Positions 42,496 through 60,800 of a stretch of DNA of 64,000 bases are shown here, piece after piece (position 1 is the stretch's first letter; the number at the start of each line of letters is the position of its first letter). Made by a program: the position numbers and the translations under genes. This DNA comes from Oscillospiraceae bacterium (GTDB taxonomy: Bacteria > Bacillota > Clostridia > Oscillospirales > Ruminococcaceae), in assembly GCA_017435045.1 (NCBI GenBank), contig JAFSFT010000031.1, positions 15,274 through 79,273 of the forward strand. Reading direction: 5' to 3'. Below the pieces are notes generated by a model. It ran no database searches, had not been told where the DNA came from, and saw only the letters and a program-made list of their open reading frames with translations.

Positions 42496-43620
42496 ATGAA
42501 AAAGAACAGCGAACCAAACAACACAAAACCCGAAGACAAGCTTAAACAGCAGCGGACACCTTTAAAGAAAAAACGTGCCGGTGTTGTTCTGTCACGCCAT
42601 CAGGTAAAGGAAATTAAAGCGGGGCGTAAAAAGCTTCGTAAAGAGCTTAAGAAGGCGGGCATAAAAAGCAAAAAGGACTTTGAGGTTACAGCGGCAAGCC
42701 TTGGTCTGTATTTTGACAAGCCAAAGGGCAGCCTGTTCTGGCTGCTGCTCAAGGGCAAAGCCCTGTGGGCACTGCTTGGTGCTGCGGCACTGTTTCTGTC
42801 GGTTCTGTTCCTTTTCTCTCTCCTCGAACAGATGAGAGGTCACTTTACCATCAACCTCAGTGAAGAGATGCTTAACAAAGGTTTTATCTTAAGCGAAACC
42901 GAGGATTTCTCAAACCCTGTAACGGTGCTTTACTGCGAGCCAAAAACCAACGTGGCGGCAACCTCCATATCCCATATCCCTACAGATGTTATGGATCATC
43001 AGGGTATGTATGATGACGACACAGTCTTTGCCTACAGCTTCTTTATGAAGTACGAGGGCGAGGAAACAGGCCATTACCGATATGATATAAAGGTTAACTC
43101 TGAATATCTTGACGTAAGCAAGGCCTGCTGGGTAATGGTTTTTGCAGACGGCGAAATGTCCTTCTATGCCGAAGAAGGCGCAGACGGCCTGCCGGAAAGC
43201 ATACCTGCACAGGACGATAACAGCCGCGGTTATCCGGAAGCATATTTTATGGATTATGCAAAAAATCCGGCCGACCAGTATGAAATTATCAAAGAAATCG
43301 GCAACGCAAAATATTATCGTCTTATACCAAAGCCTTTCAATGACGAAAGACGCGTTACAAGACAGGACGGTATGGCCCTTAACGACCAGGAATATCACAA
43401 ATACACAGTGGTAATCTGGCTGGAGGGTGACGACCCTGAATGTGTAAACGATATTATCGGCGGACATCTCGGTTTACAGATGAACTTTGCACTCCTCGGC
43501 GAAGAGGAAGAAGAGGACTTCGGCCTCAGCAACGAGGGCCTGCTTGATAACCTTGGTCAGTACTGGGTTAAATTTATAGAAGACCTTGAAAGTCTGTTTG
43601 GCGGATTGAAATACGACTAA
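42496..43620 (+). CDS. Family member A: type-II-anchored TasA-like-motif protein with a Lys-rich cytoplasmic tail
   Basis: 374 aa. Tail KKKRAGVV..KAGRKKLRKELKKAGIKSKK. TM ALWALLGAAALFLSVLFLFSLL. The ectodomain ends YTVVIWLEGDDPECVNDIIGGHLGLQMNFALLG, followed by EEEEEDFG. Starts 10 nt after the preceding stop. Confidence 0.6.
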   Translation: MKKNSEPNNTKPEDKLKQQRTPLKKKRAGVVLSRHQVKEIKAGRKKLRKELKKAGIKSKKDFEVTAASLGLYFDKPKGSLFWLLLKGKALWALLGAAALFLSVLFLFSLLEQMRGHFTINLSEEMLNKGFILSETEDFSNPVTVLYCEPKTNVAATSISHIPTDVMDHQGMYDDDTVFAYSFFMKYEGEETGHYRYDIKVNSEYLDVSKACWVMVFADGEMSFYAEEGADGLPESIPAQDDNSRGYPEAYFMDYAKNPADQYEIIKEIGNAKYYRLIPKPFNDERRVTRQDGMALNDQEYHKYTVVIWLEGDDPECVNDIIGGHLGLQMNFALLGEEEEEDFGLSNEGLLDNLGQYWVKFIEDLESLFGGLKYD

Positions 43621-43733
43621 ACTTAAACTTGGCATAAATTGTGCTTTGTTACAGCACTCACAGGGAGGGCTGGCACTGCACATTTATAAATAAATTTTTT
43701 AATCTTTAAAAAATAAGAAAGAAGGAGATTGCA

Positions 43734-45806
43734 ATGAACAACAGAAAAAAGCAGCTTAATTCTATTAAGAAAAAGATGATGGCTGCAACATCTATGTTAT
43801 TGGTAGCATCTATTATGATGGTTTCATCCACATACGCTTGGTTTACACTGTCAACTGCACCAGAAGTTACAGGTATTTCCACAACAGTAGGCGCTAACGG
43901 TAACCTTGAAATCGCATTGGCTAACCCACTTGGTGACCCATCCACAGTTACATCAGGCGTTGGCGATTCCACAGCAAGCGGTAAAGTAGTTACAGCTTCC
44001 AACCTTACTTGGGGTAACCTTGTAGACCTTGGCGATGCAAGCTACGGTCTTAAAGACATCGTTCTCCAGCCTGCAGCACTCAGCGCAGAAGAGGATGCAT
44101 TTACACATGCTATGGTAGTTAAATCCAACATCCTTTCCACACCTGAATACGGTGCAGACGGCAGAGTATCCGCTCTTGTAGACAAATCCACAACAGCGTC
44201 CTTTGATGCTCTGACAGGCAAATGGGTAACAGGTACAACAGAAAACCCAGGTTACGGTGTAAGAGCAGTTGGTCTGCTTTCCGGCCAGAGCGAAACAACT
44301 GTTGCATTCCGTGAAGCACGTGCACAGCTTTCTCAGCAGGCACAGAGTGCTAAAAACTCTGCAAGTGCTGCTTTGGTTGCAAACGGCGACACACTTGGTA
44401 ACGTTATCATCAAAAAAGCTCTCGACGGCGACGCAGCAAGCTTTACAGAAGAAGAACTTGATGCTCTTGGCGAAATGATCGGTGGTCTTGAACACACAAT
44501 GACATACATCGACAAAGCTATCCAGTACGGTGCTCTTGGCCGTGCAGCAAGTGCTGAATTTACAGATACTGTAAAATACGAAGCAATCAAAGCTGCAATT
44601 GCATCCACAGAAACACCTGCAACAGCAGAAAGCATCCTCAAAATCTTCTACGGCACAGTAGCTAATGATGCAGTTACACCTGCAGCTTCTGTTCCAACAG
44701 ATAAAACAGGCGATGTACTTATCGACACATACAACAAATACCTTGCAACAGTAGCTGCTATTGACGTAGCTAACGGTAAATACGAAACAGCTTCAGAAGC
44801 AGGCAACTACTCCTGGGAAGCTATTTCCCCAGTTCTCAACGCACTTGTTGTTTACAACAATGTAACAGTTAACGGCCTTACAGTTGACGATGTTAAAGCT
44901 AACATCAGCGCACTTGTAAACTCTGCTCTTAAAGGCGGTATCAAAGTTACAATGCCAACAGGCTCCGGTGTTATCGCTGACGTTGCTGACCTTGCAGGCG
45001 ACTACTCTGCAGGTATCACACTCAGAAACATCGAATATGCAGGTGCAACTGTAGAAGAACTTCCAGCTACAATGAACACAGCATCCACAGTTGACCCAGA
45101 ACACATCGAAAAAGTTTCTCAGTTCATCCTTTCCAAAGGTGCTATGACTTCCGGTACAGAAGGCGGCGACACATCTACATTTACAGATGCTTACGCTTAC
45201 ATCATCGACCTGTTCTTCAGAACAAACGTTGCAGGCTCTAACCTCCTGCTCCAGACAGAAGCTGTAGACCGTGTATACTCTGACCAGACAGAAGGTGCAA
45301 CACAGGGTAAAGGCAGCTCCATGATTTTCACAACAGAAAATACAGAAGCATTCTCTGTTCCACAGATGAAACAGCTTATGAACTGCATCAAACTTGTATT
45401 TGTTGACGAAGACAATGCAATCCTTGCAAAAGGTATGCTCGACGTTGCTTCCGCAACAGACACAGTTGAAGGCACAACAGGTACTGTTGAAGCAAAAATC
45501 AACCTTTACACAGAAACAACAGTTGACAATGTAACAACTGTAACAAAACTTGAAGGTACAGATGCTAAACTTGCAGCTCTTACACAGAACGAAGCTAAGA
45601 TGGTTTCTGTAATTGTTTACCTCGACGGTGCAAACGTTGACAACTCCATGGTTGCTAACGCTGCAACATCCATGACAGGTATGCTCAACCTCCAGTTTGC
45701 AAGCGATGCACAGCTTGTTCCAATGGAAAACAGCCAGATCAGAGACCTTCCTACAGGTGAAGAAGCAGGCGACAACACAACAGAAGGCGAAGGCGCAGGT
45801 GCATAA
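43734..45806 (+). CDS. Family member B (690 aa): candidate major fibre subunit with a TasA/SipW-type signal motif
   Basis: N-terminus KKKMMAATSMLLVASIMMVSSTYAWFTLSTAPEVTGISTTVGANGNLEIAL (TYAWF at 43830-43844). C-terminal VIVYLDGANVDNSMVANAATSMTGMLNLQFASDAQ. Codon usage is as biased as pheST and the SBP gene. RBS aaggag. Confidence 0.7.
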   Translation: MNNRKKQLNSIKKKMMAATSMLLVASIMMVSSTYAWFTLSTAPEVTGISTTVGANGNLEIALANPLGDPSTVTSGVGDSTASGKVVTASNLTWGNLVDLGDASYGLKDIVLQPAALSAEEDAFTHAMVVKSNILSTPEYGADGRVSALVDKSTTASFDALTGKWVTGTTENPGYGVRAVGLLSGQSETTVAFREARAQLSQQAQSAKNSASAALVANGDTLGNVIIKKALDGDAASFTEEELDALGEMIGGLEHTMTYIDKAIQYGALGRAASAEFTDTVKYEAIKAAIASTETPATAESILKIFYGTVANDAVTPAASVPTDKTGDVLIDTYNKYLATVAAIDVANGKYETASEAGNYSWEAISPVLNALVVYNNVTVNGLTVDDVKANISALVNSALKGGIKVTMPTGSGVIADVADLAGDYSAGITLRNIEYAGATVEELPATMNTASTVDPEHIEKVSQFILSKGAMTSGTEGGDTSTFTDAYAYIIDLFFRTNVAGSNLLLQTEAVDRVYSDQTEGATQGKGSSMIFTTENTEAFSVPQMKQLMNCIKLVFVDEDNAILAKGMLDVASATDTVEGTTGTVEAKINLYTETTVDNVTTVTKLEGTDAKLAALTQNEAKMVSVIVYLDGANVDNSMVANAATSMTGMLNLQFASDAQLVPMENSQIRDLPTGEEAGDNTTEGEGAGA

Positions 45807-45864
45807 TCGTCTAACTGTTTAAGTGCGATTTTGTTATCAATAACAAAAACTTACATATCTTATA

Positions 45865-45888
45865 TCGGGGCAGTGCCAACTGCCCCGA
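45865..45888 (+). other. GC-rich stem-loop after member B (no U-tract)
   Basis: TCGGGGCAG-tgccaa-CTGCCCCGA followed by ctaagataaaaaaa. Confidence 0.45.
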
Positions 45889-45928
45889 CTAAGATAAAAA
45901 AATTTAATAACGGGAGGAAATGTAAACA

Positions 45929-46915
45929 TTGAAAGTTTCACAGTATAAAAACAAAAAACGCTTTCAGATTGTTAAAGTTTTATATGTGACAATTGTCCTT
46001 CTTGCATTGACTACCGTTGCAACTTATACCTGGTTCAATTTAAGTACAAGACCATCCATCAACGATATGTCCATCTATATCAACAGCGGTGTCGGTCTGG
46101 AACTTTCCCTCGATAAAAACAGCGAGGAATGGTCATCCCAGATAGATTTCCGCGAACTGGAGATGGAAAACACCCCACTCGTACCAATCACTTATTCCCA
46201 GGCAGACAACAGCTTTTACACAGTTGTCCACGGTGCAGACGGCAGAATTGCAAGTGTAGACTATAAAATTCAGCCATCGCCAATACCAAAAAGTCTGGAA
46301 AATAACGGTTATTACCTCAAGGTTTCCTTTTTTGGCAGAACAGACGAGGATATAAAGGTTTATCTCTCTCCTGCAGTGGAACTGGAAAGAGGCACAGTTG
46401 GGGCGGGCACATGGCTTATCGGTGCACCTACATGGGATGGCGAAACTGTCAGCCACAAAAACGGCGGCGGCGGTGCCGAATACGCAATGCGTGTTGGCAT
46501 CAACATTACCTATCTTAACGAACTGGGCAACAGTACAGGCAATTCTGTCTTTTATATGTACGAGCCTAACTACGACGGACATCTTGACGGCTCCACAGGC
46601 TATGTTGAGACAAAGTCTGTAAACGGAGACCCGCTTATAAACGAGCAGTTTCTTATAAAACAGACCAAATCCACCTGGCGTGATGCCGACCTTGTGCAGA
46701 AAAATGTTATTATCAGCGACCTTGGCACCTTTGACAAGGAACCGTTGCTCTTTGAAATTGACGAGGGCGAAATGGTGCAGATAGAGCTTTATTTCTGGCT
46801 GGAAGGTCAGGATATCGACTGCGGCAACCTGCTTAACGAACAGTGTATGATTATGTCAAACATTCAGTTCCGTGCAGAAACAGAGGGCAGCAGCGAACTG
46901 CGTCCTATCTATTGA
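45929..46915 (+). CDS. Family member C (328 aa), TasA/SipW-type signal motif
   Basis: TTG start after gggagg. VLYVTIVLLALTTVATYTWFNLSTRPSINDMSIYINSGVGLELSL. HGADGRIASV parallels YGADGRVSAL of member B. C-terminal IELYFWLEGQDIDCGNLLNEQCMIMSNIQFRAE. Confidence 0.65.
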   Translation: MKVSQYKNKKRFQIVKVLYVTIVLLALTTVATYTWFNLSTRPSINDMSIYINSGVGLELSLDKNSEEWSSQIDFRELEMENTPLVPITYSQADNSFYTVVHGADGRIASVDYKIQPSPIPKSLENNGYYLKVSFFGRTDEDIKVYLSPAVELERGTVGAGTWLIGAPTWDGETVSHKNGGGGAEYAMRVGINITYLNELGNSTGNSVFYMYEPNYDGHLDGSTGYVETKSVNGDPLINEQFLIKQTKSTWRDADLVQKNVIISDLGTFDKEPLLFEIDEGEMVQIELYFWLEGQDIDCGNLLNEQCMIMSNIQFRAETEGSSELRPIY

Positions 46916-46965
46916 TGTTGCTGCTTTTACAGCAGACAGATTGTTATGTAATTTTTATAAATTGC

Positions 46966-47011
46966 ATACCAATCAAAGAACATAAAGCTTTTTGTGTTCT
47001 TTGATTGGTAT
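46966..47011 (+). other. Strong 17-bp stem-loop upstream of the first SipW gene
   Basis: ATACCAATCAAAGAACA (46966-46982) / TGTTCTTTGATTGGTAT (46995-47011). The T-run lies in the loop, not 3' of the stem. TATAAT follows immediately at 47011-47016. Confidence 0.5.
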
Positions 47012-47047
47012 ATAATGACCAAAAATATGTTTTCTTAGGAGGCGCTA

Positions 47048-47935
47048 ATGAAACTGAATAAATTTAACAAAAAAGAAAAACAACAGTTGCGGCAGGCTGC
47101 AGCGGGCGGCAATGTTGCAGAAAATGCCAACGGCGAAGTTATTGTTGTTGAAGAAGAAAAAGGAAGTATCTTAAACACAATTGTTAACGTCTTCCTTGTA
47201 GTTGCTATTGTAATAGCAGTTGTATGTACATATGTGTCATTTGTATCTACATCGGGCAGTGGTGTGCCAAGTATCCTTGGTATAAGACCATTCTCCATCC
47301 AGACAGAATCCATGTATCCTACATTCCTGCCTGGCGACCTTATCATCGATACAGCAGTTGACGACACAAGCGAGCTTGAGGTTGGCGATATCATCACATA
47401 CTGGACAATCATCAACGGCGAACGTGTACTCAACACCCATAGAATTTCAGCTATATATGACGGCGGCGGATACCTCATCTTTGCCACACAGGGTGATAAC
47501 AACCAGTCTGCCGACGCACTTACCGTTCACGAATCGGAGGTTGTAGGTAAGTATAAATTCAGGATACAGGGGTTAGGTAAAGTCTTTGACTATCTGCAGA
47601 CAAGCACAGGCTTCCTTATCGTTGTAGTTGTTCCTGTATTTATCTTCTTTATCTTCCACCTTATCAAGTTCTTCCAGGTGCTCTTTGAATATCAGAACAT
47701 CAAGAACAGAATCGTTTACGAACAGGAAAGAGGCAATGCAGAGGAACTTATTGCTGAACAGAAACGTCAGCAGGAAGAACTTAACCGTCTGCGTGAAGAA
47801 CAGAAAAACAAAGAAAAACAGGAGCTGGAAGAAAAACTGCGTGCTCAGCTTAAAGCTGAAATCCTCGCAGATATGCTCAAGGAAAAAGAAGCTGCTGCAC
47901 CTGCAGAAGCTGCACAAAACGTTGAGGAAGTATAA
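47048..47935 (+). CDS. Signal peptidase I, archaeal/ER (SipW) type, copy 1, with a C-terminal TM and coiled-coil tail
   Basis: 295 aa. Catalytic blocks FSIQTESMYPTFLPGDLII, NTHRISAI and ATQGDNN; compare B. subtilis SipW SGSMEP / THRI / TKGDNN (from memory). Second TM FLIVVVVPVFIFFIFHLIKFF, then EQKRQQEELNRLREEQKNKEKQELEEKLRAQLKAE. Confidence 0.8.
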   Translation: MKLNKFNKKEKQQLRQAAAGGNVAENANGEVIVVEEEKGSILNTIVNVFLVVAIVIAVVCTYVSFVSTSGSGVPSILGIRPFSIQTESMYPTFLPGDLIIDTAVDDTSELEVGDIITYWTIINGERVLNTHRISAIYDGGGYLIFATQGDNNQSADALTVHESEVVGKYKFRIQGLGKVFDYLQTSTGFLIVVVVPVFIFFIFHLIKFFQVLFEYQNIKNRIVYEQERGNAEELIAEQKRQQEELNRLREEQKNKEKQELEEKLRAQLKAEILADMLKEKEAAAPAEAAQNVEEV

Positions 47936-49557
47936 TGGAAGGGTTTTTCAGATATTTCTATCAGGATATTGGCAGAGTGTTCAAGGCATTTCTGGATATG
48001 ATAATGTCCTTTTTCACATTCCTTAACTATCTGCTCAATTTCCCTATGCGAATGGAGATAATCGAAAGCTACTCCGAAGACTTTTCCACAAAAGAATGGA
48101 TAATGCTTTTGATTGCCAACATTCTTTTGGTAGTAATCATCGTAGGCGTGCTTATTCTTATAGGAAAAATCTTTAAAAAGATTTTCCGTTTCCGTGTTCC
48201 GGTTAAAAAATACGACGAGCTTGTAAAGCAGGTTAAGGTGCTGCAGACAGACCTTATCCGTGCCAACTACGAAAAGGATAAGCTGCTTGCCATGAAGGTT
48301 GCCGAGCTGGGTCTTGACCCTGACAAGGAAACAACCGACAAGCTGCTTGAAAGCCTTTACGGTCAGGACGGCAATCTTGCCGAAGGCGTAGAAGAAAACG
48401 GAGAAGAAAAGACAGAGGAAAATCAGGTTTTCGAAACAAACCGCAACACCTTCAATTCTCCTGTTGTTGATCCGTCTACAAGCCGTTTCTTCCGTCTTAC
48501 CGAGGTTGACAACTACTACAAAACACAGTATGTTGCACCGGAATACGAGGAGATGGATCTGGAAGAATTCTGTAACCGCTTCCGTCTCTTTGCAGCAAGC
48601 AAGCTTAAGCTTTACTACGATATTTCTATCATCAGATTCTTTGTTGCATCCATGGGTGCAGCAAGAATTATCATCCTGCAGGGTATTTCCGGTACAGGTA
48701 AAACAAGTTTGCCTTACGCATTCGGTAAATTTGTACAGAAGGACACAACAGTTGTTTCCGTACAGCCTGCATGGAGAGAAAGAACCGAGCTTTACGGTTA
48801 TTTCAACGAATTTACAAAAAGATATACAGAAACAGACTTTTTGAAAGCAGTTTACGAAAGTAACTTCTACAAGGATCCGCATATTATAATCCTGGACGAA
48901 ATGAACATCGCCCGTGTTGAATACTACTTTGCGGAAATGCTTTCAATTCTGGAAATGCCGCTTCAGTCCGAATGGAATATCGACATTGTTACAGCGGTAT
49001 GGGATAACGACCCATGTCTTATCGACCAGGGTAAGGTACGCATCAACAACAACCTCTGGTTTGTTGGTACAATCAACAACGACGACTCCACATTTGCTGT
49101 AGCCGACAAAGTTTACGACCGTGCTATCCCTATCGACCTTGACAGCCGTGCCGAAGCATTTGAGTGCGAAGAATGTGACCCTGTACACGTTAACGTGGAG
49201 ATGCTCAACCGCCTCTTTGACGAAGCAAAGGCAAAATATCCTGTAAGTCAGGATATTCTTGACAAGCTGGACGAAGTTAACGCCTATCTTATCAGCGTAT
49301 TCCGTCTTGCTTTCGGTAACCGTATTATGAAACAGATACGCGACTATGTGCCTTGCTACATTGCCTGCGGCGGCACAGAAATTGAAGCTGTCGACTTTAT
49401 CGTTGCCAAAAAGGTTTTGCGTAAGTTTGAATCCTTAAGCCTTGGCTTTATGAAGGATGACCTTACAAAATTCTCTGCATACCTTGACAAGGTATTCGGC
49501 AAAAACCAGATGAAAATCTGTAAAGAATATATAGAATTACTCAAGAAAAATAACTAA
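47935..49557 (+). CDS. Membrane-anchored McrB-family (AAA_5) AAA+ NTPase
   Basis: The ATG overlaps the SipW stop (TAATG, 47933-47937). TM WIMLLIANILLVVIIVGVLILIG. Walker A GISGTGKTS. Walker B/McrB block IIILDEMNIARVEYYFAEMLSILE. FVGTINNDDSTFAVADKVYDRAIPIDL parallels the McrB GTMNTADRS...D.ALRRRF block. Confidence 0.7.
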   Translation: MEGFFRYFYQDIGRVFKAFLDMIMSFFTFLNYLLNFPMRMEIIESYSEDFSTKEWIMLLIANILLVVIIVGVLILIGKIFKKIFRFRVPVKKYDELVKQVKVLQTDLIRANYEKDKLLAMKVAELGLDPDKETTDKLLESLYGQDGNLAEGVEENGEEKTEENQVFETNRNTFNSPVVDPSTSRFFRLTEVDNYYKTQYVAPEYEEMDLEEFCNRFRLFAASKLKLYYDISIIRFFVASMGAARIIILQGISGTGKTSLPYAFGKFVQKDTTVVSVQPAWRERTELYGYFNEFTKRYTETDFLKAVYESNFYKDPHIIILDEMNIARVEYYFAEMLSILEMPLQSEWNIDIVTAVWDNDPCLIDQGKVRINNNLWFVGTINNDDSTFAVADKVYDRAIPIDLDSRAEAFECEECDPVHVNVEMLNRLFDEAKAKYPVSQDILDKLDEVNAYLISVFRLAFGNRIMKQIRDYVPCYIACGGTEIEAVDFIVAKKVLRKFESLSLGFMKDDLTKFSAYLDKVFGKNQMKICKEYIELLKKNN

Positions 49558-51385: not shown

Positions 51386-52771
51386 ATGACAGGACCAGCG
51401 GCAAAGCTCATATCCATAGGGATAATGTTGGTTGTTTCACTGTGTCTTGTTACAGTAACCTCCTACGCATGGCTGACAATGTCAGACAACCCTGTGGCAA
51501 CAGGCATTCAGGTTTCGGTTGGCGGCAGTAACACAATAAAGCTGGCGGCTGACATATCAACTGTTACTGAAGACGGCCAGGTGCTGCACTATCCTGCATT
51601 TTTCAGCGAAACACTCACCCTTAATGAAGAAGCAGACTATCTTCCTTTAAGCCCTGTATCTACAGCAGACGGCGTAAACTGGTATTTTCCAAAGGAAATA
51701 AAAAAGGAAAATGCAGCATATACCCCGGGTATTGAAATCCGCGAAGAAAGCTCTCTCCAGAAAGACGAATTCGTGCACGATGACAAGCTGGAATATGCAA
51801 ATATAGATGCCGGTCAGGACACTGAAGTTAAAGGAAGCTATATGTATTTTGATTTCTGGGTGGTTTCACCGCAGGAAAACTGCGAGCTCAGGGTAAGTGT
51901 TGGTCAGGACGGCAGCGGCAGCTATGTGATAAATCTTCCTACTGTAGTAAAAACAGAAGATTCCTATCAGCTGGACATCTCAAACAACGAACCATCCACA
52001 TATGCAAGGGTTGGTTTCCTTGTAAACTCTGATGTGCAGACAAATGACTCAATGAACGAATATGTACAGCAGCCTCAGTATATGGATATATACAAAAAGC
52101 TGCGTGGCATATATCAGGAAAAAGGCGAAAGTGCCTCACAGTACAACCGCCTTACAAGCTATACAATATACGAACCTAACGGCGACAGCCATCCGTCAGC
52201 CGCAAGCTCTGATGTATATACAAACATCGGGCTTAAAAATATGGCTCTTAAAGATGGCGAATATGTTATCACCAGCCCTATTTCCAAGGTTAACGGTGCT
52301 CATATAGCAACAGAGGCACAAAGCTACCTTGCTGTGCAGAAAACAAGCCGCTGGGCAATGAGCGACGAAAGCGAAAGCTTTTTGCAGCAGCACTTTGAAG
52401 CATTTTTGCTTCAGCTTGGGGATAAAGCTGACAAGTACACAGAAGAAGAACTTATGAACCGTTTTTACGAAAACTGGATTCAGCAGAACTGTGCATACTA
52501 CCTTAATCTTGGTCAGTTTATACCTAATTCTTCACTGCTTTACAGTCAGGCAAAGGGAGATCTGGGTATTTACAGATATGTAAAGGAAGAATCTCTTGCA
52601 AAGCTTGGCACAAGCGGTGCAACAGACGATGCGGTGATAGCATATCTTGAAAAAAACGTTCCTCAGAGAATAAGAATGTATGTTTACCTTGAGGGACAGG
52701 ATGTGGATTGCATAAGCAATGCAGATGTTAACAGTCTTATTGTTCATCTGGAACTTGCGGGGAGCAACTAA
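51386..52771 (+). CDS. Family member D (461 aa), TasA/SipW-type signal motif
   Basis: KLISIGIMLVVSLCLVTVTSYAWLTMSDNPVATGIQVSVGGSNTIKLA. YTIYEPNGDSH parallels FYMYEPNYDGH of member C. C-terminal IRMYVYLEGQDVDCISNADVNSLIVHLELAGSN. Confidence 0.65.
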   Translation: MTGPAAKLISIGIMLVVSLCLVTVTSYAWLTMSDNPVATGIQVSVGGSNTIKLAADISTVTEDGQVLHYPAFFSETLTLNEEADYLPLSPVSTADGVNWYFPKEIKKENAAYTPGIEIREESSLQKDEFVHDDKLEYANIDAGQDTEVKGSYMYFDFWVVSPQENCELRVSVGQDGSGSYVINLPTVVKTEDSYQLDISNNEPSTYARVGFLVNSDVQTNDSMNEYVQQPQYMDIYKKLRGIYQEKGESASQYNRLTSYTIYEPNGDSHPSAASSDVYTNIGLKNMALKDGEYVITSPISKVNGAHIATEAQSYLAVQKTSRWAMSDESESFLQQHFEAFLLQLGDKADKYTEEELMNRFYENWIQQNCAYYLNLGQFIPNSSLLYSQAKGDLGIYRYVKEESLAKLGTSGATDDAVIAYLEKNVPQRIRMYVYLEGQDVDCISNADVNSLIVHLELAGSN

Positions 52772-52776
52772 AAACA

Positions 52777-53487
52777 ATGACAAAGAAAAAAAACACAAAT
52801 AAATCAATTTCCGGCAAAGCGGTTTCGGTAATGTTTGTTGTTTCTTTTCTGCTTTGTATAACCATAGTGGTGCAGGTACTGTTTAAAGGTTATGCCAGCT
52901 TGGGCGGTTACAGCCTGTTCAGAGTTGTAACCGGCTCTATGGAACCGACAATACCTACAGGCGCATTGCTGTTGTGTGACTCTATGGATATAGAGGATAT
53001 AGTTGAAGGTGACATTGTGTGCTTCCGTTCACCGGAAAGATATATGAAAGGAAGCGTAATTACACACCGTGTATACGATGTGAAAAAGGAAAGCAACGGC
53101 GATATACACCTTTACACCAAGGGAGATGCCAATATTTCCATAGATGGTTATATAGTAAAAGAAGAACACTTTATCGGCAGAGTAAGCTGGTATACAAGAA
53201 AAGACGGATTTTTTATCAACTTTATAGGTCTGCTTTCAAGCAGATACGGCTTTTTGTCCTGTATAGTATTTCCTGTACTTATTGTCAGCAGTATCATTAT
53301 AAGGGATTGCACAAAGAGTATTATGAAGGACCTTGAGCAAGCAAATGCAGAGCTTGATGAAAGAGAAAAGGAATATGTTCCGCAGCAGGATATTTCTGCA
53401 GAGGAATATAAGGAAATGTATGACAGAATCAAAGCCGAATTGTTAGGAGAATTGGCAAGTGAACACAATAGCAAGCTGGAAAAATAG
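52777..53487 (+). CDS. Signal peptidase I, archaeal/ER (SipW) type, copy 2
   Basis: 236 aa. FRVVTGSMEPTIPTGALLL, ITHRVYDV, YTKGDANISIDG. Second TM FLSCIVFPVLIVSSIIIRD, then the charged tail EQANAELDEREKEYVPQQDISAEEYKEMYDRIKAEL. Confidence 0.85.
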   Translation: MTKKKNTNKSISGKAVSVMFVVSFLLCITIVVQVLFKGYASLGGYSLFRVVTGSMEPTIPTGALLLCDSMDIEDIVEGDIVCFRSPERYMKGSVITHRVYDVKKESNGDIHLYTKGDANISIDGYIVKEEHFIGRVSWYTRKDGFFINFIGLLSSRYGFLSCIVFPVLIVSSIIIRDCTKSIMKDLEQANAELDEREKEYVPQQDISAEEYKEMYDRIKAELLGELASEHNSKLEK

Positions 53488-55024
53488 AATAACAGACCGA
53501 TTCAATGGCCTTTCCGATATACAGAAAAAGCTGTATGTCAAAGGTCTCTTTGTGCTGTTTGTGTTTTTCCTTACAATTGTGCTGATTTTTGCTGCAACTG
53601 CTGCATGGTACAACAATATAGCACAGGTTGAAGAACTTGCTTTTGAAATTGATGCCTGGGGTGTAGACAGCACAATAACAATTGAAGACCAGTCTGTTGA
53701 AAAGGCTGCTCCGGGGGATATCGGTACAATTCCGTACAAAATTGACAACGAGGCAGACAGTCTTGTAAATGTTCAGATAAAAGCTGCCAAAAAATATCTG
53801 CCTGAATTTATGCAGAAAAGAATATATTTTTATGTTGACAAAAAGGTAGAAGTTAACGGCGAAACCCTTGAAAAGGCATACATACACGATGACAATGCAT
53901 ACTCCCACGTGCTTCTGGGCGGCCAGAATGTAGATAACACAGGCGATGTTGCATCGGACGGCAAAATCAAGTGGGAATGGGTATATGACCTGCTGGGCTA
54001 TTATGTTGTTATCGAAACAGACGATGATGACATCAGTAAGGAAACAGCATATATCCGACCTGTGCAGTACACCTACGAAGATGCTAAATATGACAACGAC
54101 ACAGGTGCACTTACAAGCATAAAAATAGACGGCAAAGAGGTTACAGCAGAGGACTATATCAAAAACCTGCTTGATACCGACGGCTTTGAAACAGAAGAGT
54201 TCAAAGAGCTGGAAGAAATCAAAACAATACTCAAATTCAAGGATATTTCCGAAGAAATAACAGAAAAGACATACTACGAGGTTTATACCGAAGATGATTA
54301 CGGTGTATACCTGTACATCTGCGATTTCCAGGAAATTGCCGTGAACAATCGTGTTGATACAGACATAGGCAACAAGGAGGAAGCATACCTCCTCGGTGAC
54401 GAAAACTATACAGTTATCCAGATAAGCTGCGGTCAGGCACATGAATATGTGGTTGAAATGGCAGATGCTGCCCAGCTTTATTCAATTATGTCTGATAAAG
54501 AGGCGTATACAAAGTTCCTCACAGACAATGAGCTGGAAGATGTAAAAAGCAATGTTATTTTCCAGCTTACACAGGATATGAATCTGAACACAGTTACAAT
54601 GTTTGACGGTGCAGACTTCATAATCGACCTTAATGGATTTACCCTTTCCTGTGCAGGCCCTGCAAGTGCAGAGCAGGCACAGCACGCAATGTTTACATTG
54701 AAGGAAAAATCCTCACTCAGAATTTACAACGGTAACATTCATCCGGGCAATTACACCCCGTTTGCGGTTACAAACAGCACACTGGTGGCAAAGGAAATCA
54801 CCTTTGACCACAAGACATCAACAGTAAGGGCAGACAATACTGACCAGAAACGCGGCAGCAACATACAGCTTGTGCGCTGTGTATGGGCAGAAGATATGCC
54901 ACAGGATGTTGTGACAATAGAGGAAATAAATGACGAGGGCGAAACAGTCCAGTCCTTTATATGTATAAAAGAAGCAGAATCACAGACAGAAACACAGGCA
55001 GATGAGGATACATCTGCAGAATAG
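53459..55024 (+). CDS. Family member E (521 aa), TasA-like motif AAWYNN; contains an IDLNGxT module
   Basis: GTG start 8 nt after aggagaa, overlapping the SipW-2 3' end by 29 nt. LFVLFVFFLTIVLIFAATAAWYNNIAQVEELAFEIDAWGVD. IIDLNGFTLSCAG...LRIYNGNIHPGNY parallels the giant protein. KRGSNIQLVRCVWAED, then an acidic tail. Confidence 0.6.
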   Translation: MNTIASWKNRITDRFNGLSDIQKKLYVKGLFVLFVFFLTIVLIFAATAAWYNNIAQVEELAFEIDAWGVDSTITIEDQSVEKAAPGDIGTIPYKIDNEADSLVNVQIKAAKKYLPEFMQKRIYFYVDKKVEVNGETLEKAYIHDDNAYSHVLLGGQNVDNTGDVASDGKIKWEWVYDLLGYYVVIETDDDDISKETAYIRPVQYTYEDAKYDNDTGALTSIKIDGKEVTAEDYIKNLLDTDGFETEEFKELEEIKTILKFKDISEEITEKTYYEVYTEDDYGVYLYICDFQEIAVNNRVDTDIGNKEEAYLLGDENYTVIQISCGQAHEYVVEMADAAQLYSIMSDKEAYTKFLTDNELEDVKSNVIFQLTQDMNLNTVTMFDGADFIIDLNGFTLSCAGPASAEQAQHAMFTLKEKSSLRIYNGNIHPGNYTPFAVTNSTLVAKEITFDHKTSTVRADNTDQKRGSNIQLVRCVWAEDMPQDVVTIEEINDEGETVQSFICIKEAESQTETQADEDTSAE

Positions 55025-55032
55025 TAGAAAAG

Positions 55033-55779
55033 ATGAAAAATAGCAGGATAATCAGAAGAAACTTGTTATCTTTGATTGGTGTTTTCATTATGGTTCTCAC
55101 AATGCTCGCCGTTATGGGCGTTGCATGGGCAAGATTCAGCGAAGAAGACAAAAAGATAATGAGAATAGAGACATACCACGACAGACAGTGGTATATCTAC
55201 GGCGGCGACTACAGTGCAGGCGACGCCGATGAAATTCTGCCCGAAACGGTAATTGCCAACGAGGTATTACCGGGCGTTATCGAATGGAACGACAACGAAA
55301 GAAGAATTCGTTTCCATGTTACCAATGGCAAAAAGGCAGACAGCTACGGTAAAGAAGATTTCAGCTACTCAATTTGGGTGCTGGTTACAAATACATTAAA
55401 GCCTACCGACCTTACACTGATGCTGCAGTACTATGAGGGCGACACGGTCAAATCCATCACAGCGGAGCCGGAAAGGATAACCGAGGACAGCCAGCTGTAC
55501 AAGAGCATCGGGGATGGCTGGATTTACAAGTTCTATGTTGATGCCACAGTTACAGACACAACACAGAACAACACCCAAACCCAGACAGAGGTTACAGAGG
55601 GTACAGGCGACACAGGCACAGGCGATACTGCTCAGGGTACAACAACACCGGCAAGAGCAGAGTTTGTGGACACACTCAAGGGCGGACAGCTCTCTATGAA
55701 CACATACGATTTAAGTATCATCGGTCAGGCAGAGGCAGGCTTGCTTGAAATTGAAATTATAGAATATACACAGGAGTAA
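55033..55779 (+). CDS. Family member F (248 aa), TasA-like motif AWARF
   Basis: LLSLIGVFIMVLTMLAVMGVAWARFSEEDKK. Thr/Gly/Asp-rich stretch TQTQTEVTEGTGDTGTGDTAQGTTTP. C-terminal KGGQLSMNTYDLSIIGQAE. Confidence 0.6.
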   Translation: MKNSRIIRRNLLSLIGVFIMVLTMLAVMGVAWARFSEEDKKIMRIETYHDRQWYIYGGDYSAGDADEILPETVIANEVLPGVIEWNDNERRIRFHVTNGKKADSYGKEDFSYSIWVLVTNTLKPTDLTLMLQYYEGDTVKSITAEPERITEDSQLYKSIGDGWIYKFYVDATVTDTTQNNTQTQTEVTEGTGDTGTGDTAQGTTTPARAEFVDTLKGGQLSMNTYDLSIIGQAEAGLLEIEIIEYTQE

Positions 55780-55794
55780 AAGGGGGGAAAAGAA

Positions 55795-57801
55795 GTGCAT
55801 AAAAGAAAAATACATAGTATATATCTGTGCGTACTGTCTTTGGTTACAGCATTTATGATGTGTTATTTTTCTGTAGGCACTTCATACGCCCACTATACAT
55901 ATACAAGAGAAAAACAGATTATCATAAACGGCGACGGAAAGCTGGAATCCAATATCTTTTTTGAGGAAGGCTGTCAGGTTATCCTTAAGGACTGGGACCT
56001 TTCAAAGACCATTCCGCCGCAAAAGGTTACAGCACAGTTTACAGGCAGTGCAAAGGGCAGGCTTGAATATACCGTGCAGGGTGAATATGCACAGTATTTT
56101 ACAGTTTCCGTTAAATATGCAGAAAGCGGAAGTGCTGTGGGCACAAATATAATTGATATCTCTGCAGAAACACCAATCAATATTGAAATTGCACCTGTTA
56201 CACCTGCACTAAGCACACTTGCGGACGATATTTCTCCTGTGGTTGAGTTTAAACTGACAACCTACAATCAGGACGGTACAGCAGGCCGTGTGCTGCAGGG
56301 CAGCTTTGTGTGGAATATCCTTGCTGCCGATGCAGGCAGTTATGCAATAAATGCTGCAAATATGCTTGTGGCATCACGTGCAGTGCCTGTACGGCCAAAA
56401 ATAATGCAGCTTACCCTTGTACAGCAGGACGAACAGAATACTGATGCACCTGCAGAGGGCGGCGCTGAAGGCGACACAAACCCTGACGGTACAGAGGGCG
56501 ATACAGGCTCGGACAACACTACAGGTTCCGAGGGCAATACGGGTACAGGCGATACCACGGGTTCTGATGGTAATACCGGCACAGGTGATACCACAGGCTC
56601 TGACAATACAGGCGACAATACAACTTCGGGTGACGCAGGCACAGACGACACCACAGGCGGCAATACCGATGGTTCCGGCGATACTACAGGCGGCACCACC
56701 GAAACTCCTGAAGGCTCTGATGGCACAGGCGATTCTTCCGGCGAAGGTACAGAAGGCGAAGACGACAAGGATGACGAGGAAGAAGAGGAAACAGGCGATA
56801 ACGTTATAGAGGTTATTCCTGCACAGACAGACGTAGACATTATCCTTTGCAATGTGGAGGATGTGTTTGGCGTTGACGGTAAAATTACCTACACAAACAA
56901 AGGCCTTTTCTCCCGGATTACAGCGGACAACGGTGCAGGCTTCGGCGGCGGCTCCATTACAGAGGATATAGTTTTTATCTACGACAGCAAGGCCAGAAGC
57001 GGCGAAGCAGGCTTAAATGTTGATATTTCACCGGAAGCACAGATGGGGGACGAATGTATAATCACATTCCGTTACCAGACATCTGATATGCAGGGTGTTA
57101 TGTCTGAATATATTGAAGAAAAGATTACCGTAAGGGTAATCACCTCTGAACTTCCAACACTTGAAAATGTTGTGGTTACAGATGGCGAAAAGGTTACAAT
57201 CTACGCCACAGTAAACTATGTTCAGGGCACAAAAAACGGCAAAATCAGCGTAACAGGCGGCCTTGAACCTTATACAAAGGTTGTTACAGGCGACAAGATA
57301 TACATTCTGCCGTACGGCGGCAGCTTCCTGCATCCGCTGCCAACAAGGGATGCACAGACCGTTACATATATGGTGGAATATCCAAAGGATACAATTCCAT
57401 CGGAAGTAACAGTAGAAGCAACAAGCTGCTTCTCGGGCAGCTCGGGCGTAAAGGGCAAACAGACAACAGAGGTTAAGGATATGTCCAACACCACCTTTGC
57501 AGGCACCCAGCCACACACGATTATATTGTCATCCGACAATGCAATAGATTTTGATATTATACCAACCATAACAGAAGCAGGCCCTGTGGTTTCCTACACA
57601 GTGGAATACTACAATGGCGAAAGCTATGTTCCTGTTGATGCAGCAGCATTTAAAGGTGTGATATCACAGGACACAACAAAGCTCAGCCTGTCTACAGGCA
57701 CAAAATACCCAAGAGCGGGTGTTTACAGAATGTGTCTGCAGATGCAGCAGGGCAACAATTTATCAATCGCATACAAAACATTTTTCGTAAACTATAGATA
57801 G
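55795..57801 (+). CDS. Family member G (668 aa): TasA-like termini flanking a G/T/D-rich linker and a cohesin-like module
   Basis: GTG start. LCVLSLVTAFMMCYFSVGTSYAHYTYTREKQ. Low-complexity segment at 56440-56800. The module VFGVDGKITYTNKGLFSRITADNGAGFGGGSITEDIVFIYDSKARSGEAGLNVDISPEAQMGDECIITFRYQ is paralogous to the 39891 protein. C-terminal QQGNNLSIAYKTFFVNYR. Confidence 0.65.
   Translation: MHKRKIHSIYLCVLSLVTAFMMCYFSVGTSYAHYTYTREKQIIINGDGKLESNIFFEEGCQVILKDWDLSKTIPPQKVTAQFTGSAKGRLEYTVQGEYAQYFTVSVKYAESGSAVGTNIIDISAETPINIEIAPVTPALSTLADDISPVVEFKLTTYNQDGTAGRVLQGSFVWNILAADAGSYAINAANMLVASRAVPVRPKIMQLTLVQQDEQNTDAPAEGGAEGDTNPDGTEGDTGSDNTTGSEGNTGTGDTTGSDGNTGTGDTTGSDNTGDNTTSGDAGTDDTTGGNTDGSGDTTGGTTETPEGSDGTGDSSGEGTEGEDDKDDEEEEETGDNVIEVIPAQTDVDIILCNVEDVFGVDGKITYTNKGLFSRITADNGAGFGGGSITEDIVFIYDSKARSGEAGLNVDISPEAQMGDECIITFRYQTSDMQGVMSEYIEEKITVRVITSELPTLENVVVTDGEKVTIYATVNYVQGTKNGKISVTGGLEPYTKVVTGDKIYILPYGGSFLHPLPTRDAQTVTYMVEYPKDTIPSEVTVEATSCFSGSSGVKGKQTTEVKDMSNTTFAGTQPHTIILSSDNAIDFDIIPTITEAGPVVSYTVEYYNGESYVPVDAAAFKGVISQDTTKLSLSTGTKYPRAGVYRMCLQMQQGNNLSIAYKTFFVNYR
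56440..56800 (+). repeat. Low-complexity Gly/Thr/Asp/Glu-coding segment with imperfect tandem repeats
   Basis: Encodes DAPAEGGAEGDTNPDGTEGDTGSDNTTGSEGNTGTGDTTGSDGNTGTGDTTGSDNTGDNTTSGDAGTDDTTGGNTDGSGDTTGG...EGEDDKDDEEEEETGD. The unit GNTGTGDTTGSD appears twice in tandem. Confidence 0.8.
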
Positions 57802-57819
57802 GAGGCTTTCAGCAGAATC

Positions 57820-60800
57820 ATGACTGATACACAAAAGTATATTCAGGCGTATAAAGCTGCTCTGCCACGGCTCAGAGAAAAGGTCGCGGCAGCGGTTATG
57901 ATGCTTGTAATATCGGCAATTATGGCAACTTCTGCAACATTTGCGTGGGTTTCCCTCTCTGTTAACCCTGAGGTTTCAAACATTCAGACAACAGTAACAG
58001 CAAACGGCAACCTTGAAATTGCCCTTTCGGATGTTGATGGCCTCGAGCCAGAAAAATCCCAGGTAGGGGACAGCGGCAAAGACCTTGTGGTAAAGAACGT
58101 TACATGGGGTAACCTTGTAAACCTTTCCGACCCTCTTTACGGTCTTGGCAAGCTTACACTACGCCCTGCAGAACTTAACACAACAGGCGACCTGCTTACA
58201 GCACCGCTTAAGGTTGTTACATACGGCAAGGACGGCCGTGTTGACAAGTTCTCCAGCAGCCTGCTTTACACAAAATATGACGAGGCATCAGGCGAATATC
58301 TTGTGCCTGACGACGACGGATTTGGTGTAAAGATTATTTCGGCTGTTGAATACAAAAACGTAACAGGTGCAAACGATTACCAGAATATGCTTGCAGAAGC
58401 CGAAACCAACTGGTCAGCAGCAAACAGCATCTATCAGGGGCTTATCTCAAACCAGAACAACCTTGATGCACTTTCCGGTCTTATCGGTGCTTTCGTTGAC
58501 AACAAGCTCAACGGCGGTTCTCCGGACGTTTCTGTATATGTTCCAAAGCTGTACAGTATGATGCTGGAATTCCAGGATTTTGTGGATGCAACAGACGGTG
58601 TTCTCTGCAACCTGGCTGTTATACACCAGTATCCTCATATGGCAGAAGAAGAAATTATCTACCACGATATTGAAGAGCTTCTGGCAGCAACAGATGCAGA
58701 GCGTGAGGCACGTCACGTAAAAATTGACGGTCTTGCAACCTATAAGAGTGACAGAACAAAGCTTAAACAGTACATTGCAGAACTTAAATCTTTTAGCGAT
58801 AAGGTTACAGTTAACGGCGGTACAGTTACATGGCAGGAAATCTCCCATATTATGAACTTTATGGTTGATATTCCGTCCACAACAATCAACGGCATTGCAG
58901 CAAAAGACGTTGGCATGAGCGAAGCTGCAGGTATGATTTTTGGCACACAGAAGGCAGTTATCCATAAGGGTGCCATCTACAACATGGAAAAAATGTCCGG
59001 TTCCCGTATGTATGTGCCAAAAGTTTCAATCAGTGCAACAGTTAAAGGTATGTCTGCTTCTGTTAAAGCTTCTGTAGAAACAAGCGTAACAGAGCCTTAC
59101 TACATCAAAGAGGCTGTTAACGACGCCCGCAGCTACGGCGGCGAATTTGCAGGCGGCGACGCAGTTGCAACAGACACATACGGCCTTGCAATGGACCTGT
59201 GGCTGCGTACCAACGCAACAAATGCATATCTCGTGCTGGAAGGCAGCCCGATTATCGAACAGGTTGAACAGGTTGACGAAGACGGCAACGTTGTAACAGA
59301 CGAAAACGACGAGCCGATTATGATTGACGCTGTTACAGGCTACGACGGTGCAAACAGAATCTGGAACGATGGTGCATCAGGCCCTAACAGTACAACACAG
59401 GGCAACGGCAGCTGCTATATCTTCTATGCAGACGACCCTATCATCCAGCAGAAAGCACTGGAAGTTATGGGTGCAATGAAGGTTGCATTTGTGGATGCAG
59501 CAGGCAGAGCAATTGCCTATGCAGACATGGACGTTGCACACGCATATCAGGAAACAGGTAAAATCACCATTCCTCTGGTACTCAACGGCAGAAGCACAGA
59601 AATTCTCGATGCCGAAGGCAATCCTGTAAAGGACCTTGTAACAGGCGAAAGCTACTATGCGGTTAAAAAGCTGGAAAAGAACACAGCAGAACGCATAACA
59701 GCAATTCTTTATATTGACGGTACACAGGTAACAAATACCGATGTTCTGGCAGATGCTGACATTCAGGGTCAGCTTAACCTGCAGTTCGGCATCAATGAAC
59801 AGATGGCACCTGCAGACGACGAAGACCTCAAGTTTGAGGAAGTTCTTATTACAGGTGAACTTTCCAAAGACGAGTTCGACTTTGATACAGAAACAGACTT
59901 CTCAACCCTTGTAACACTTACAGTTGACGGCATTGAACCTGAAAGGGTAACAGCAAACTTTATCCGTGCAATCAACGAAACACAGGGTACAAGAGAAAAA
60001 GAAATTACATTTGAAATGCAGAGCAACAACATCAAGTGGACCTCCACAATGGACTTTGACGCTCCTGGTAACTACATCCTCAGAAGTGTATTCCTCGATG
60101 GTGTTGAATACGACCTTGAAGAACCACTTGTAGCAACAGTTAAGGGCTACGGCATCAAGTCCCTGTCCTGTGACAAGGTATTTGGCGGTTCATCCGCAAC
60201 ATATATGACAGCGGACAACTACCTTGATGCAAGCTACACACTGGTAATGGCTTCCTCTGCACGCAAACCTGCAAAAATCCAGGGTGTTCTCTCCAACGAA
60301 CACGGCCAGCAGATTATCACCGACTTTAAGGCAGGCACAGACTTCTACAAAGCCAACGTAAGGTTTGAAACTTCCGGTACTTACAAGATGACACATCTTA
60401 TCATCGACGGCGAATGGTACGAAGTTCCTGCTGCAGTAACAAAAGTGCTGCATCTCTACCTTGGTATGACCACAAAGGTTATGCTGTCTGAAACAGACTT
60501 TATCCTCGAAGAACCACGCACAGTTGAGGTTTACGCCGAGGTTTATAACGACAAGGACGAAGAGATGGAAGGTCTTACAGACACAAAAATCCGCTTCAGC
60601 CACAAGACAAACGGCCTTACTGTTCTTGACAGCGATATGACATGGAACGAAGATACAGGCAGATACGAGGGTAACTTCCTTGTACAGCGTGCAGGTGTTT
60701 ACAACTTTGCATTCTTCCGTGCAGGCGAAAGCACAATCAGACAGGGTGAGTCTCCATCCATCAGAGCAAGCTCGCCTGAACCACCAAAATATGTAGGTCT

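Follow-up and report, generated by a model that had tools for sequence, protein, structure and literature searches.

The threads of Sulfolobus and the bundling pili of Pyrobaculum, both archaeal, are assembled from β-sandwich subunits that are processed by signal peptidase I and joined by donation of an N-terminal strand. We know of no AAA+ module that is associated with these archaeal donor-strand filaments. In the tapA-sipW-tasA operon of Bacillus subtilis, the donor strand of TasA is its N-terminal segment (residues 28-38), and the N-terminus of TapA is similar (PMC9674648). N-terminal donor-strand exchange has also been proposed for BsaA of Clostridium perfringens, and BsaA/TasA paralogues encoded in one operon have been proposed to form heteropolymers (bioRxiv 10.1101/2024.11.04.621531). 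Here we describe a conserved operon of about 29 kilobases (kb) in a stretch of 64,000 nucleotides (the window) from a metagenome-assembled genome (MAG) of an Oscillospiraceae bacterium (assembly GCA_017435045.1, contig JAFSFT010000031.1, positions 15,274 to 79,273 of the forward strand). On balance this operon, found in uncultured gut and rumen Clostridia, probably builds a cell-surface structure that depends on SipW-type signal peptidases. It occupies roughly 33.4-62.2 kb of the window, and the region under study is its core. Fifteen genes lie head to tail on the + strand (33.5-62.1 kb), in the following order:

33551..39805, + strand, up1: secreted protein of 2084 amino acids with an ordinary signal peptide, its C-terminal segment borderline dockerin-like
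39891..41012, + strand, up2: surface protein of 373 amino acids with a signal peptide, a FIVAR-like region and a C-terminal transmembrane (TM) anchor
41028..42485, + strand, up3: cytoplasmic protein with HD_5 (HD-GYP-type) and EAL domains
42496..43620, + strand, A: bitopic membrane protein
43734..45806, + strand, B: SipW-signal protein of 690 amino acids
45929..46915, + strand, C: protein of 328 amino acids, the minimal member of the β-sandwich superfamily
47048..47935, + strand, Sip1: signal peptidase I of the archaeal/endoplasmic reticulum (ER) type (SipW-like)
47935..49557, + strand, ATPase: membrane-anchored McrB-like AAA+ ATPase of 540 amino acids
49572..51323, + strand, X583: cytoplasmic partner protein
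51386..52771, + strand, D: paralogue of C, 461 amino acids
52777..53487, + strand, Sip2: second SipW-like signal peptidase I
53459..55024, + strand, E: SipW-signal protein of 521 amino acids with an unrelated mature domain
55033..55779, + strand, F: SipW-signal protein of 248 amino acids, unrelated to the others and variably present
55795..57801, + strand, G: SipW-signal protein of 668 amino acids with a T/G/D-rich linker, rarely conserved
57820..62136, + strand, H: protein of 1438 amino acids, residues 1 to ~684 of which are a full paralogue of B

The organization of this cluster is similar to that of tapA-sipW-tasA in several respects. A dedicated signal peptidase of the archaeal/ER type is encoded beside its substrates, and the signals end in T-aromatic-A followed by x-F-x, in the same register. 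Each operon has several substrates, one of which is a candidate anchor or nucleator (TapA in B. subtilis, A in the cluster). In both cases the subunits are β-sandwiches, and the mature N-terminus is conserved where TasA has its donor strand. On the other hand, the mature domains have no detectable relation in sequence or fold. The cluster subunits contain 328-1438 residues as compared to 261 in TasA, with a helical insertion in B and H, and there are two peptidases, both with long charged tails. The cluster is also set apart by its extent (~29 kb, 15 genes) and, in comparison with the TasA operon, by a membrane AAA+ ATPase, a DUF2357-like protein and an HD-GYP/EAL protein.

The sipW-bsaA-bsaB-bsaC operon of C. 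perfringens is likewise a clostridial SipW operon with several paralogous substrates. BsaA fibres are locked by isopeptide bonds; no N-E-K isopeptide triad was seen in the cluster proteins, where no search was aimed at it. BsaC has a vWA domain while the cluster has none. BsaA and BsaB belong to the TasA family by iterative hidden Markov model (HMM) search (10.1101/2024.11.04.621531), whereas the cluster proteins are not recognised with the profiles built here.

Both peptidases match TIGR02228, the model of archaeal/ER-type signal peptidase I, with scores of 88.8 bits (Sip1) and 86.5 bits (Sip2) against a cut-off of 51.85. Their scores for the Bacillus SipW equivalog NF046067 (90.4 and 72.1 bits, respectively) are under its cut-off of 190, and they are therefore described here as SipW-like and not as SipW orthologues. 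The catalytic residues, Ser88 and His131 in Sip1 and Ser54 and His97 in Sip2, are invariant in 46 of 46 orthologues of each enzyme. Judged by these residues, both peptidases look active, with an apparently intact catalytic machinery. Tails rich in Glu, Lys and Arg extend past the second TM helix, over about 80 residues in Sip1 and about 60 in Sip2. A weak similarity between the charged regions of Sip1 and X583 (BLAST, E = 0.025) is probably compositional.

The predicted signal ends of seven proteins share the TasA/TapA-type context T-x-A/[WHR]-[FY]-[TSN]: STYA/WFT in B, ATYT/WFN in C, TSYA/WLT in D, ATAA/WYN in E, VAWA/RFS in F, TSYA/HYT in G and ATFA/WVS in H (the slash marks the end of the signal). 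They are in the same register as GTWA/AFN of TasA in the hhalign alignments. Protein A is atypical: some 80 residues of conserved, basic cytoplasmic sequence precede a single TM helix, which leads into an invariant RGHFTIN segment (MRG/HFT). The initial annotation had assigned an N-terminal export motif to all eight proteins, A to H. This is borne out for B to H, while A deviates. The 117 open reading frames (ORFs) of at least 100 amino acids in the window were scanned for a hydrophobic stretch followed by [TSAGVR]-x-[AGTS]-[WHRA]-[FYLV]-[TSN], and the pattern matches these seven proteins and only two others, one of them antisense. The predicted first mature residue, Trp35 (C numbering), is invariant in 65 diverse members of the C/D superfamily. 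It is unusual for a mature secreted protein to start with an invariant Trp.

For the mature domains, family alignments were made from orthologues in 80 related loci and compared with hhalign. The B and H families align with a probability of 100% over 595 columns, and BLASTP gives 27.5% identity over 748 columns (E = 1e-48), which confirms the colinearity over about 650 residues that had been described for this pair. The C and D families align over their full length (99.5-99.8%, E = 2e-27). The two pairs are linked to each other, with probabilities of 97.5% for B and C (92% without the signal, and 34% for a second alignment of the C-terminal half) and 98% for B and D (86% without the signal, end to end). 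Protein A joins them through its C-terminal half only (89-91% with C and 57-63% with D). These relationships place A, B, C, D and H in one unannotated superfamily of predicted β-sandwich proteins, comprising two clear pairs (B/H and C/D) and A. The earlier description of five clear paralogues was therefore overstated; what stands is the two pairs and the link between them (86-98%).

The peptide strings quoted in the initial annotation are all found in the translations at the expected places, the blocks common to B and H being located at residues 486 and 548 of B and 453 and 549 of H. The B/H block AYAYIIDLFFRTN corresponds to GYYLKVSFFGRTD in C and GSYMYFDFWVVSP in D by hhalign, and the terminal VYLDG...LNLQF of B corresponds to WLEGQDIDC...SNIQF of C.

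The AlphaFold model of C is all-β, a bare β-sandwich, with a predicted local distance difference test (pLDDT) score of 78 and a predicted template modelling (pTM) score of 0.77. In the model of B (pLDDT 81), the β core is formed by residues 59-183 and 482-657, and a helical domain (residues 187-470) is located between them. This domain interrupts a C-like core and is therefore an insertion. The initial annotation had instead proposed a core expanded two- to three-fold relative to TasA, which does not agree with a C-like β core carrying a helical insertion of ~285 residues. D is a paralogue of C over its full length, with insertions, and ends in YLEGQDVDC...LIVHLELAGSN. The first ~684 residues of H include the helical insertion and the YIDGTQVT...IQGQLNLQF block, and residues ~700-1438 form an unannotated extension; the H orthologue in one other locus (L080) has 31% identity over residues 3-1437 of H. 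Protein A consists of the basic cytoplasmic N-domain (residues 1-82), the TM helix (83-113), and an ectodomain that is homologous to C/D in its C-terminal half, with WLEGDDPEC...GGHLGLQMNF at its end.

Two regions of these proteins are especially conserved. The N-terminus of mature B is the best conserved part of this protein; its 27 residues have a column identity of 0.89, as compared to 0.48 for the whole protein, and 22 positions among residues 34-62 are invariant. Residues 31-56 have pLDDT values below 50 in the AlphaFold monomer. C has the invariant motifs YEPNxDxH and WLEGQDxDC. In the alignment of 65 diverse C/D-superfamily members, Pro86, Arg188, Glu212, Pro213, Gly293, Asp295 and Cys298 are invariant (C numbering), and Glu292 is invariant or nearly so. 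B and H have Asn in place of Cys298. None of the proteins A to H has a match to a Pfam or NCBIfam family, and the members of the superfamily are likewise assigned to no Pfam or NCBIfam family and carry no functional name. The profiles of the B family and the C/D superfamily give no meaningful match to PDB sequences.

The second conserved region is the C-terminal block. Each of the five related proteins (A, B, C, D and H) has an acidic block, [YW]-[LI]-[DE]-G-x-[DQ], ahead of an alternating strand, with the block and strand starting at residues 308 and 320 in A, 629 and 647 in B, 290 and 303 in C, 434 and 448 in D, and 631 and 648 in H. The block was thus correctly recognized in these five proteins, but the distance to the strand is 12-18 residues rather than about 20. 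The loop consensus of the five is [YW]-L-[ED]-G-x-D-x-[DN]-[CN], often with a Cys residue, and the mean column identity of the block is 0.69-0.74 as compared to 0.48-0.63 for the whole proteins. In the AlphaFold models it has a strand-short helix-strand structure (strands at residues 622-631 and 648-657 in B, and 282-292 and 307-318 in C). The block is thus modelled as the conserved terminal strand-loop-strand (hairpin) of the β core. Its acidic loop may be a metal site.

A C-terminal strand signature had been assigned to E, F and G as well, and here the assignment fails. A regular expression loose enough to include E, F and G also turns up by chance, in 12-24% of the shuffled copies of each protein when their last 60 residues are considered. 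The orthologues of E contain ~650 residues, about 130 more than E in the window (521), so that the motif is not terminal there. Mature E, F and G align to every other member with an hhalign probability below 5%. Hence the same C-terminal strand in E, F and G is rejected, and we consider it very likely that a motif common to all eight proteins is a chance resemblance among β-strand-like sequences. This applies to E, F and G; in A, B, C, D and H, on the other hand, the block is conserved within families and aligned by hhalign, and the motif in its strict form is present in B, D and H but in none of 396 control ORFs. By these comparisons E, F and G are unrelated cargo that shares only the signal type. 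The C-terminal half of E has repeats that resemble the rungs of a β-helix, as read by eye.

The initial annotation had also likened the C-terminal block to the end of TasA, and had described a large-format TasA-like family. The C-terminus of TasA quoted for this comparison, YQGNSIKLQFSFEATQ, agrees exactly with the structure 8AUR in the Protein Data Bank (PDB), which also confirms the mature N-terminus AFND. The TasA alignment used here contains 36 PF12389 sequences, of the Bacillaceae type only (at least 37% identity), and all of the true TasA relatives collected carry PF12389. With the signal peptides included, hhalign gives probabilities of 0.65% for the B family, 0.3% for the C family and 30% for the 65-member C/D superfamily, in each case over the signal peptide only, with SSTYAWFT aligned on GGTWAAFN in register. 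After trimming of the signals, the families of A to H align to the TasA alignment with probabilities below 1%. The TasA HMM aligns only to residues 2-30 (up to 73) of any fetched member. Pfam PF12389 (Peptidase_M73) matches none of the eight window proteins and none of 39 B-family members at E ≤ 1; it matches one of the 65 C/D-superfamily members (E = 0.0098, with the aligned region not seen).

Structural comparison gave a similar result. With the full-length models of B and C as Foldseek queries, signal helix included, neither finds a PDB match at E ≤ 1e-3, and the TasA structures 5OF1 and 8AUR are not among the top 50 matches of either model. The C model has weak jelly-roll matches only, headed by concanavalin A (E = 0.01). 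At rank 5 is the Sulfolobus thread (Saci_0406, 7pnb; E = 0.047, probability 0.57), the TasA-like bundling pilus of Pyrobaculum (AbpA, 7ueg) is at rank 11 (E = 0.12), and the donor-strand-complemented FaeG (4we2) also has E = 0.12. The two archaeal filaments are among the better, though non-significant, matches, with TM-scores of 0.13-0.34. The matches of the B model (HopQ megabody, MexA/AcrA and flagellar junction proteins) have TM-scores of at most 0.14 and were rejected as artefacts of a multi-domain model.

The TasA-like family is thus without profile-profile, HMM or Pfam support in its mature domains, the outcome that had been named beforehand as refuting it. The mature domains are not detectably related to TasA in sequence, nor in fold as judged from the full-length models; it is the export that is TasA-like. 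In addition, the TasA family consensus in the region compared is QNKYQGDSxxxxFxxEATQW. The LQF of the quoted sequence is not conserved across the family, so that this part of the resemblance is specific to B. subtilis. The donor strand of TasA is N-terminal and not C-terminal, and a C-terminal strand with the proposed role is therefore without precedent in TasA.

It is conceivable, but rather unlikely, that A, B, C, D and H are very remote homologues of TasA, camelysin and BsaA, with an enlarged jelly-roll in which the C-terminal strand is the homologous last strand. The dedicated peptidase is of the same class and the cleavage sites are in the same register. TasA ends in a strand, an acidic loop with N..QG, and a strand ending in QF..EA.Q, and the block of B, VYLDG..V.N...TG.LNLQFAS.A, resembles this end; counted by eye, Y-L-D and G are 21 residues apart in the two proteins alike. 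Both are β-sandwiches (the C model here; PMC9674648 for TasA), and the TasA-like pilus 7ueg is found at Foldseek rank 11. Moreover, one distant member (P0484) aligns to positions 5-73 of the TasA HMM (E = 0.004, in a small database). Against this stand the missing sequence support for the mature domain, the absence of 5OF1 and 8AUR from the top 50 matches, and the variability of LQF within the TasA family itself. We retain a small probability for a common origin because the TasA profile is narrow, so that the negative result is not exhaustive, and because the models were compared untrimmed.

The cluster is widely conserved. C-type genes are present in at least 246 GTDB species representatives. 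Synteny was analyzed in the best 80 of these loci, where the 10-kb flanks limit some of the counts. All 80 are from MAGs of gut or rumen Clostridia, in the families Oscillospiraceae, Lachnospiraceae, Ruminococcaceae and Acutalibacteraceae. C and Sip1 are found in all 80, followed by the ATPase (78), B (76), X583 and H (71 each), Sip2 (69), D (65), E (60), A (59), up3 (56), up2 (52) and up1 (45). G is found in 7 and F in 16 by tblastn, while blastp gives 28 F ORFs. The gene order from up1 to H is kept almost everywhere, with F and G optional, and the ATPase is the most conserved gene (65-74% identity across families). Among 1.84 billion representatives, the C profile finds 2,907 clusters at 50% identity (E ≤ 1e-3), and B has more than 2,216 relatives. 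No match to C was found in a plasmid collection by tblastn, and our literature searches found no description of the cluster.

A distant version of the cluster (L081) contains an HD_5 gene, an A-like gene (27.5% identity, E = 6e-29), a C-like gene (25% identity), the ATPase (48.5% identity), a DUF2357 protein and one SipW-like peptidase, together with three small proteins with similar signals and a giant protein of 2854 residues. In L082 and L083 an HD_5 gene comes first and family members follow; the gene in L083 also carries EAL. Judged by gene content, the persistent core of the system is an HD-domain protein, A, a C/B-type subunit, SipW, the McrB-like ATPase and its DUF2357-like partner. 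Some loci show local variation. B-type genes are duplicated in tandem in L060, L065 and L075, the H-type gene directly follows X583 in L080, and the order in L023 and L077 is B, H, a BspA-type leucine-rich repeat (LRR) protein and C. L077 (CAVHCH010000140.1) is a full clostridial cluster in a bin labelled Bacteroidaceae, probably a binning error, or else a horizontal transfer.

Our best reading, by analogy with the TasA and BsaA systems, is an uncharacterised surface-fibre or adhesion apparatus for which we infer polymerisation. After export by Sec, the SipW-type peptidases would cut the subunits at Ala/Trp. Cleavage would expose the nearly invariant mature N-terminus, WFTLSTAPEVTGI, which is disordered in the AlphaFold monomer, and this segment could be the donor strand that joins the subunits into a fibre, on the model of TasA, TapA and BsaA. 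In such a fibre we would place A next to the membrane as anchor or nucleator and B as the principal subunit, with C and D in minor roles; H, with its distal extension of ~750 residues, would be the subunit that carries an adhesin. E, F and G would be co-processed accessory proteins. The N-domain of A, the peptidase tails, the ATPase, X583 and the HD-GYP/EAL protein might couple assembly or release to cyclic di-GMP (c-di-GMP) and nucleotide hydrolysis; that these cytoplasmic parts regulate or energize assembly is speculation. The mature N-terminus of B is conserved and yet unstructured in the monomer model, a combination that matches TasA and BsaA, and for this reason a heteropolymeric fibre or surface assembly is favoured.

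Several observations weigh against this model. TIGR04088, which we take to be the curated model of the SipW-cognate signal peptide, has no match in A to H at E ≤ 1, although it is a short model and the HMMER filters may drop weak hits. In A the usual pattern of small residues at -1 and -3 is absent, so that this protein may or may not be cleaved. With no Foldseek match at E ≤ 1e-3, the top match, concanavalin A, is as compatible with a lectin or an enzyme as with a pilin. The McrB-like/DUF2357 pair is reminiscent of restriction or defence modules, the ATPase matches a PADLOC candidate family, and to our knowledge the known SipW/TasA systems need no ATPase. Finally, the system is known from genes alone, and all carriers found are MAGs.

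The concanavalin match points to another function, in which the five paralogues would be secreted, non-polymerising lectin-like or carbohydrate-active β-sandwich proteins of a cellulosome-like complex for adhesion or glycan harvesting. Their conserved acidic motifs, WLEGQDxDC and YEPNxDxH, would then make up a site for Ca2+/sugar or for catalysis. Concanavalin-type lectins lead the Foldseek list of the C model (E = 0.01-0.02), several β-sandwich domains of glycoside hydrolases or lyases are found lower down, and Arg188, Glu212, Pro213, Glu292, Asp295 and Cys298 are invariant or nearly so in the 65 members. The dockerin-like segment of up1 and a BspA-type LRR adhesin next to the cluster are also consistent with such a complex. 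We consider this alternative improbable. Its Foldseek matches are all above E = 1e-3, with TM-scores of 0.15-0.23, and no CAZy-type Pfam domain was found. It leaves unexplained the nearly invariant, unstructured mature N-terminus common to B, C, D and H, as well as the membrane-anchored paralogue A and the dedicated peptidases.

The cytoplasmic side of the cluster has no counterpart in the TasA operon. The ATPase has an N-terminal TM segment (residues 50-86) and a marginal match to AAA_5 (E = 1.6e-4, 22.2 bits against a cut-off of 22). Its family profile matches the AAA+ domain of McrB (6hz4) with E = 8.4e-4, and it matches the PADLOC candidate family PDC-M26A with E = 1.4e-41. The Walker A (GISGTGKTS) and Walker B (ILDEMN) motifs are invariant, and a GTINNDDS motif is located at what we take to be the site of the McrB signature motif. 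With respect to the PADLOC match, either the candidate family includes non-defence members or the ATPase is a co-opted defence motor.

X583 has a conserved N-domain (residues 1 to ~370) and a long helical tail of ~200 residues rich in Glu, Lys and Arg. It has no match in Pfam, PDB or PADLOC. Its homologue in L081 (29.7% identity, E = 6e-61) carries DUF2357 (E = 1.1e-7, 31.8 bits against a cut-off of 23.3), presumably the McrC-type N-domain, and a nuclease domain was detected in neither protein. The pair therefore resembles McrBC in the alignment of the ATPase to the McrB AAA+ domain and in the DUF2357 of the X583 homologue. It differs from McrBC in the membrane anchor of the ATPase, in the charged coiled-coil tail of X583 without a detectable nuclease, and in being fixed inside a secreted-protein operon and not in defence islands.

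The third cytoplasmic protein, up3, is likely a c-di-GMP sensor or phosphodiesterase, judging from its domains. Its motifs look degenerate by eye, with YHQFGK for HD..GK and MHMERFDGTGYP for HHE..DG.GYP, and there is no obvious EAL signature. It may be a degenerate c-di-GMP receptor instead of an enzyme.

A more ambitious version of the fibre model combines these components into a hitherto unrecognised, energy-coupled surface-filament machine of Gram-positive bacteria, with tailed SipW-type peptidases, an McrB-derived ATPase, a nuclease-less DUF2357 partner and a degenerate HD-GYP/EAL sensor. These would form a platform at the cytoplasmic side of the membrane, and from there direct how a new family of β-sandwich subunits is processed and polymerised, with A as the anchor and B, C, D and H as the fibre. 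We regard this version as doubtful. If true, the pathway would differ from those of sortase pili and type IV pili and from the passive route of TasA, and a restriction-type motor would have been co-opted for envelope assembly.

That the cluster is instead a mosaic, with the ATPase and DUF2357-like protein as a defence or restriction module among unrelated secreted-protein genes, would fit the similarities to McrB, to PDC-M26A and to DUF2357, but it is very improbable in view of the synteny, since the pair is at the same position in 71-78 of the 80 loci from several families, is the most conserved part of the cluster (65-74% identity), and is kept in the distant version in which the subunit is only 25% identical, the persistence of this core arguing strongly against an unrelated insertion, and since the ATPase has its TM helix and X583 lacks a detectable nuclease domain or PADLOC match.

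Exact matches to proteins of the window are MBQ9845263-69 (locus tags IJO54_04190-04220), every one of which is annotated as a hypothetical protein in the source Oscillospiraceae MAG. Ordinary chromosomal genes make up the left half of the window, among them those for PheT, ABC-transporter binding proteins and an M18 aminopeptidase. Two elements are located at the ends of the cluster:

33339..33367, + strand: closest match to a sigma-70-like promoter (TTGAAA-17-TATAAT, 11/12) upstream of up1, by consensus only
62148..62179, strand not assigned: GC-rich hairpin with a 13-bp stem, 12 nucleotides past the H stop codon (called on the minus strand by the scan; the stem is palindromic)

The hairpin after H is a possible end of the transcription unit. 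A second GC-rich hairpin, a perfect 10-bp palindrome, is found between up1 and up2 (39824-39848), and may act within the operon as an attenuator or processing site, setting the giant up1 gene apart from the genes that follow. The start codon of the ATPase overlaps the stop codon of Sip1 at 47935, which suggests translational coupling. E starts with GTG and overlaps the end of Sip2 by 29 nucleotides.

The BspA-type LRR adhesin adjoins H at 62216-63916 (LRR_5, E = 7.5e-65). As an LRR protein is also located near H in L023 and L077, it seems to be loosely associated with the system. up1, up2 and this neighbour have ordinary A-x-A signal ends. The dockerin-like segment of up1 (residues 2001-2048) has a borderline match to Dockerin_1 (E = 1.2e-4, 22.7 bits against a cut-off of 22.9). 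up2 (residues 37-141) and G (residues 342-448) share a domain of ~105 residues (43% identity, E = 1e-20), which has no Pfam or PDB match. The shared domain and the dockerin-like end of up1 could point to a cohesin-dockerin-like docking of up1 on up2 or G, for which Pfam and PDB gave no support.

The cluster is a widespread and wholly unannotated system, for which the functional analogy to the SipW/TasA systems stands. The family definitions (A-like, B/H-like and C/D-like) and the diagnostic signal motif could seed annotation models. Among the dominant lineages of the gut are the Oscillospiraceae and Lachnospiraceae, for the most part uncultured, and very little is known of their surface structures. 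If the cluster builds fibres, it would extend the SipW/donor-strand principle to a new fold family, and the link of this principle to an McrB-like AAA+ module and c-di-GMP signalling would be without precedent in TasA-type systems. With either fibres or an adhesion complex as its product, the cluster would have a major and so far unrecognised influence on aggregation, on the formation of biofilms or on attachment to host and particles in the gut.

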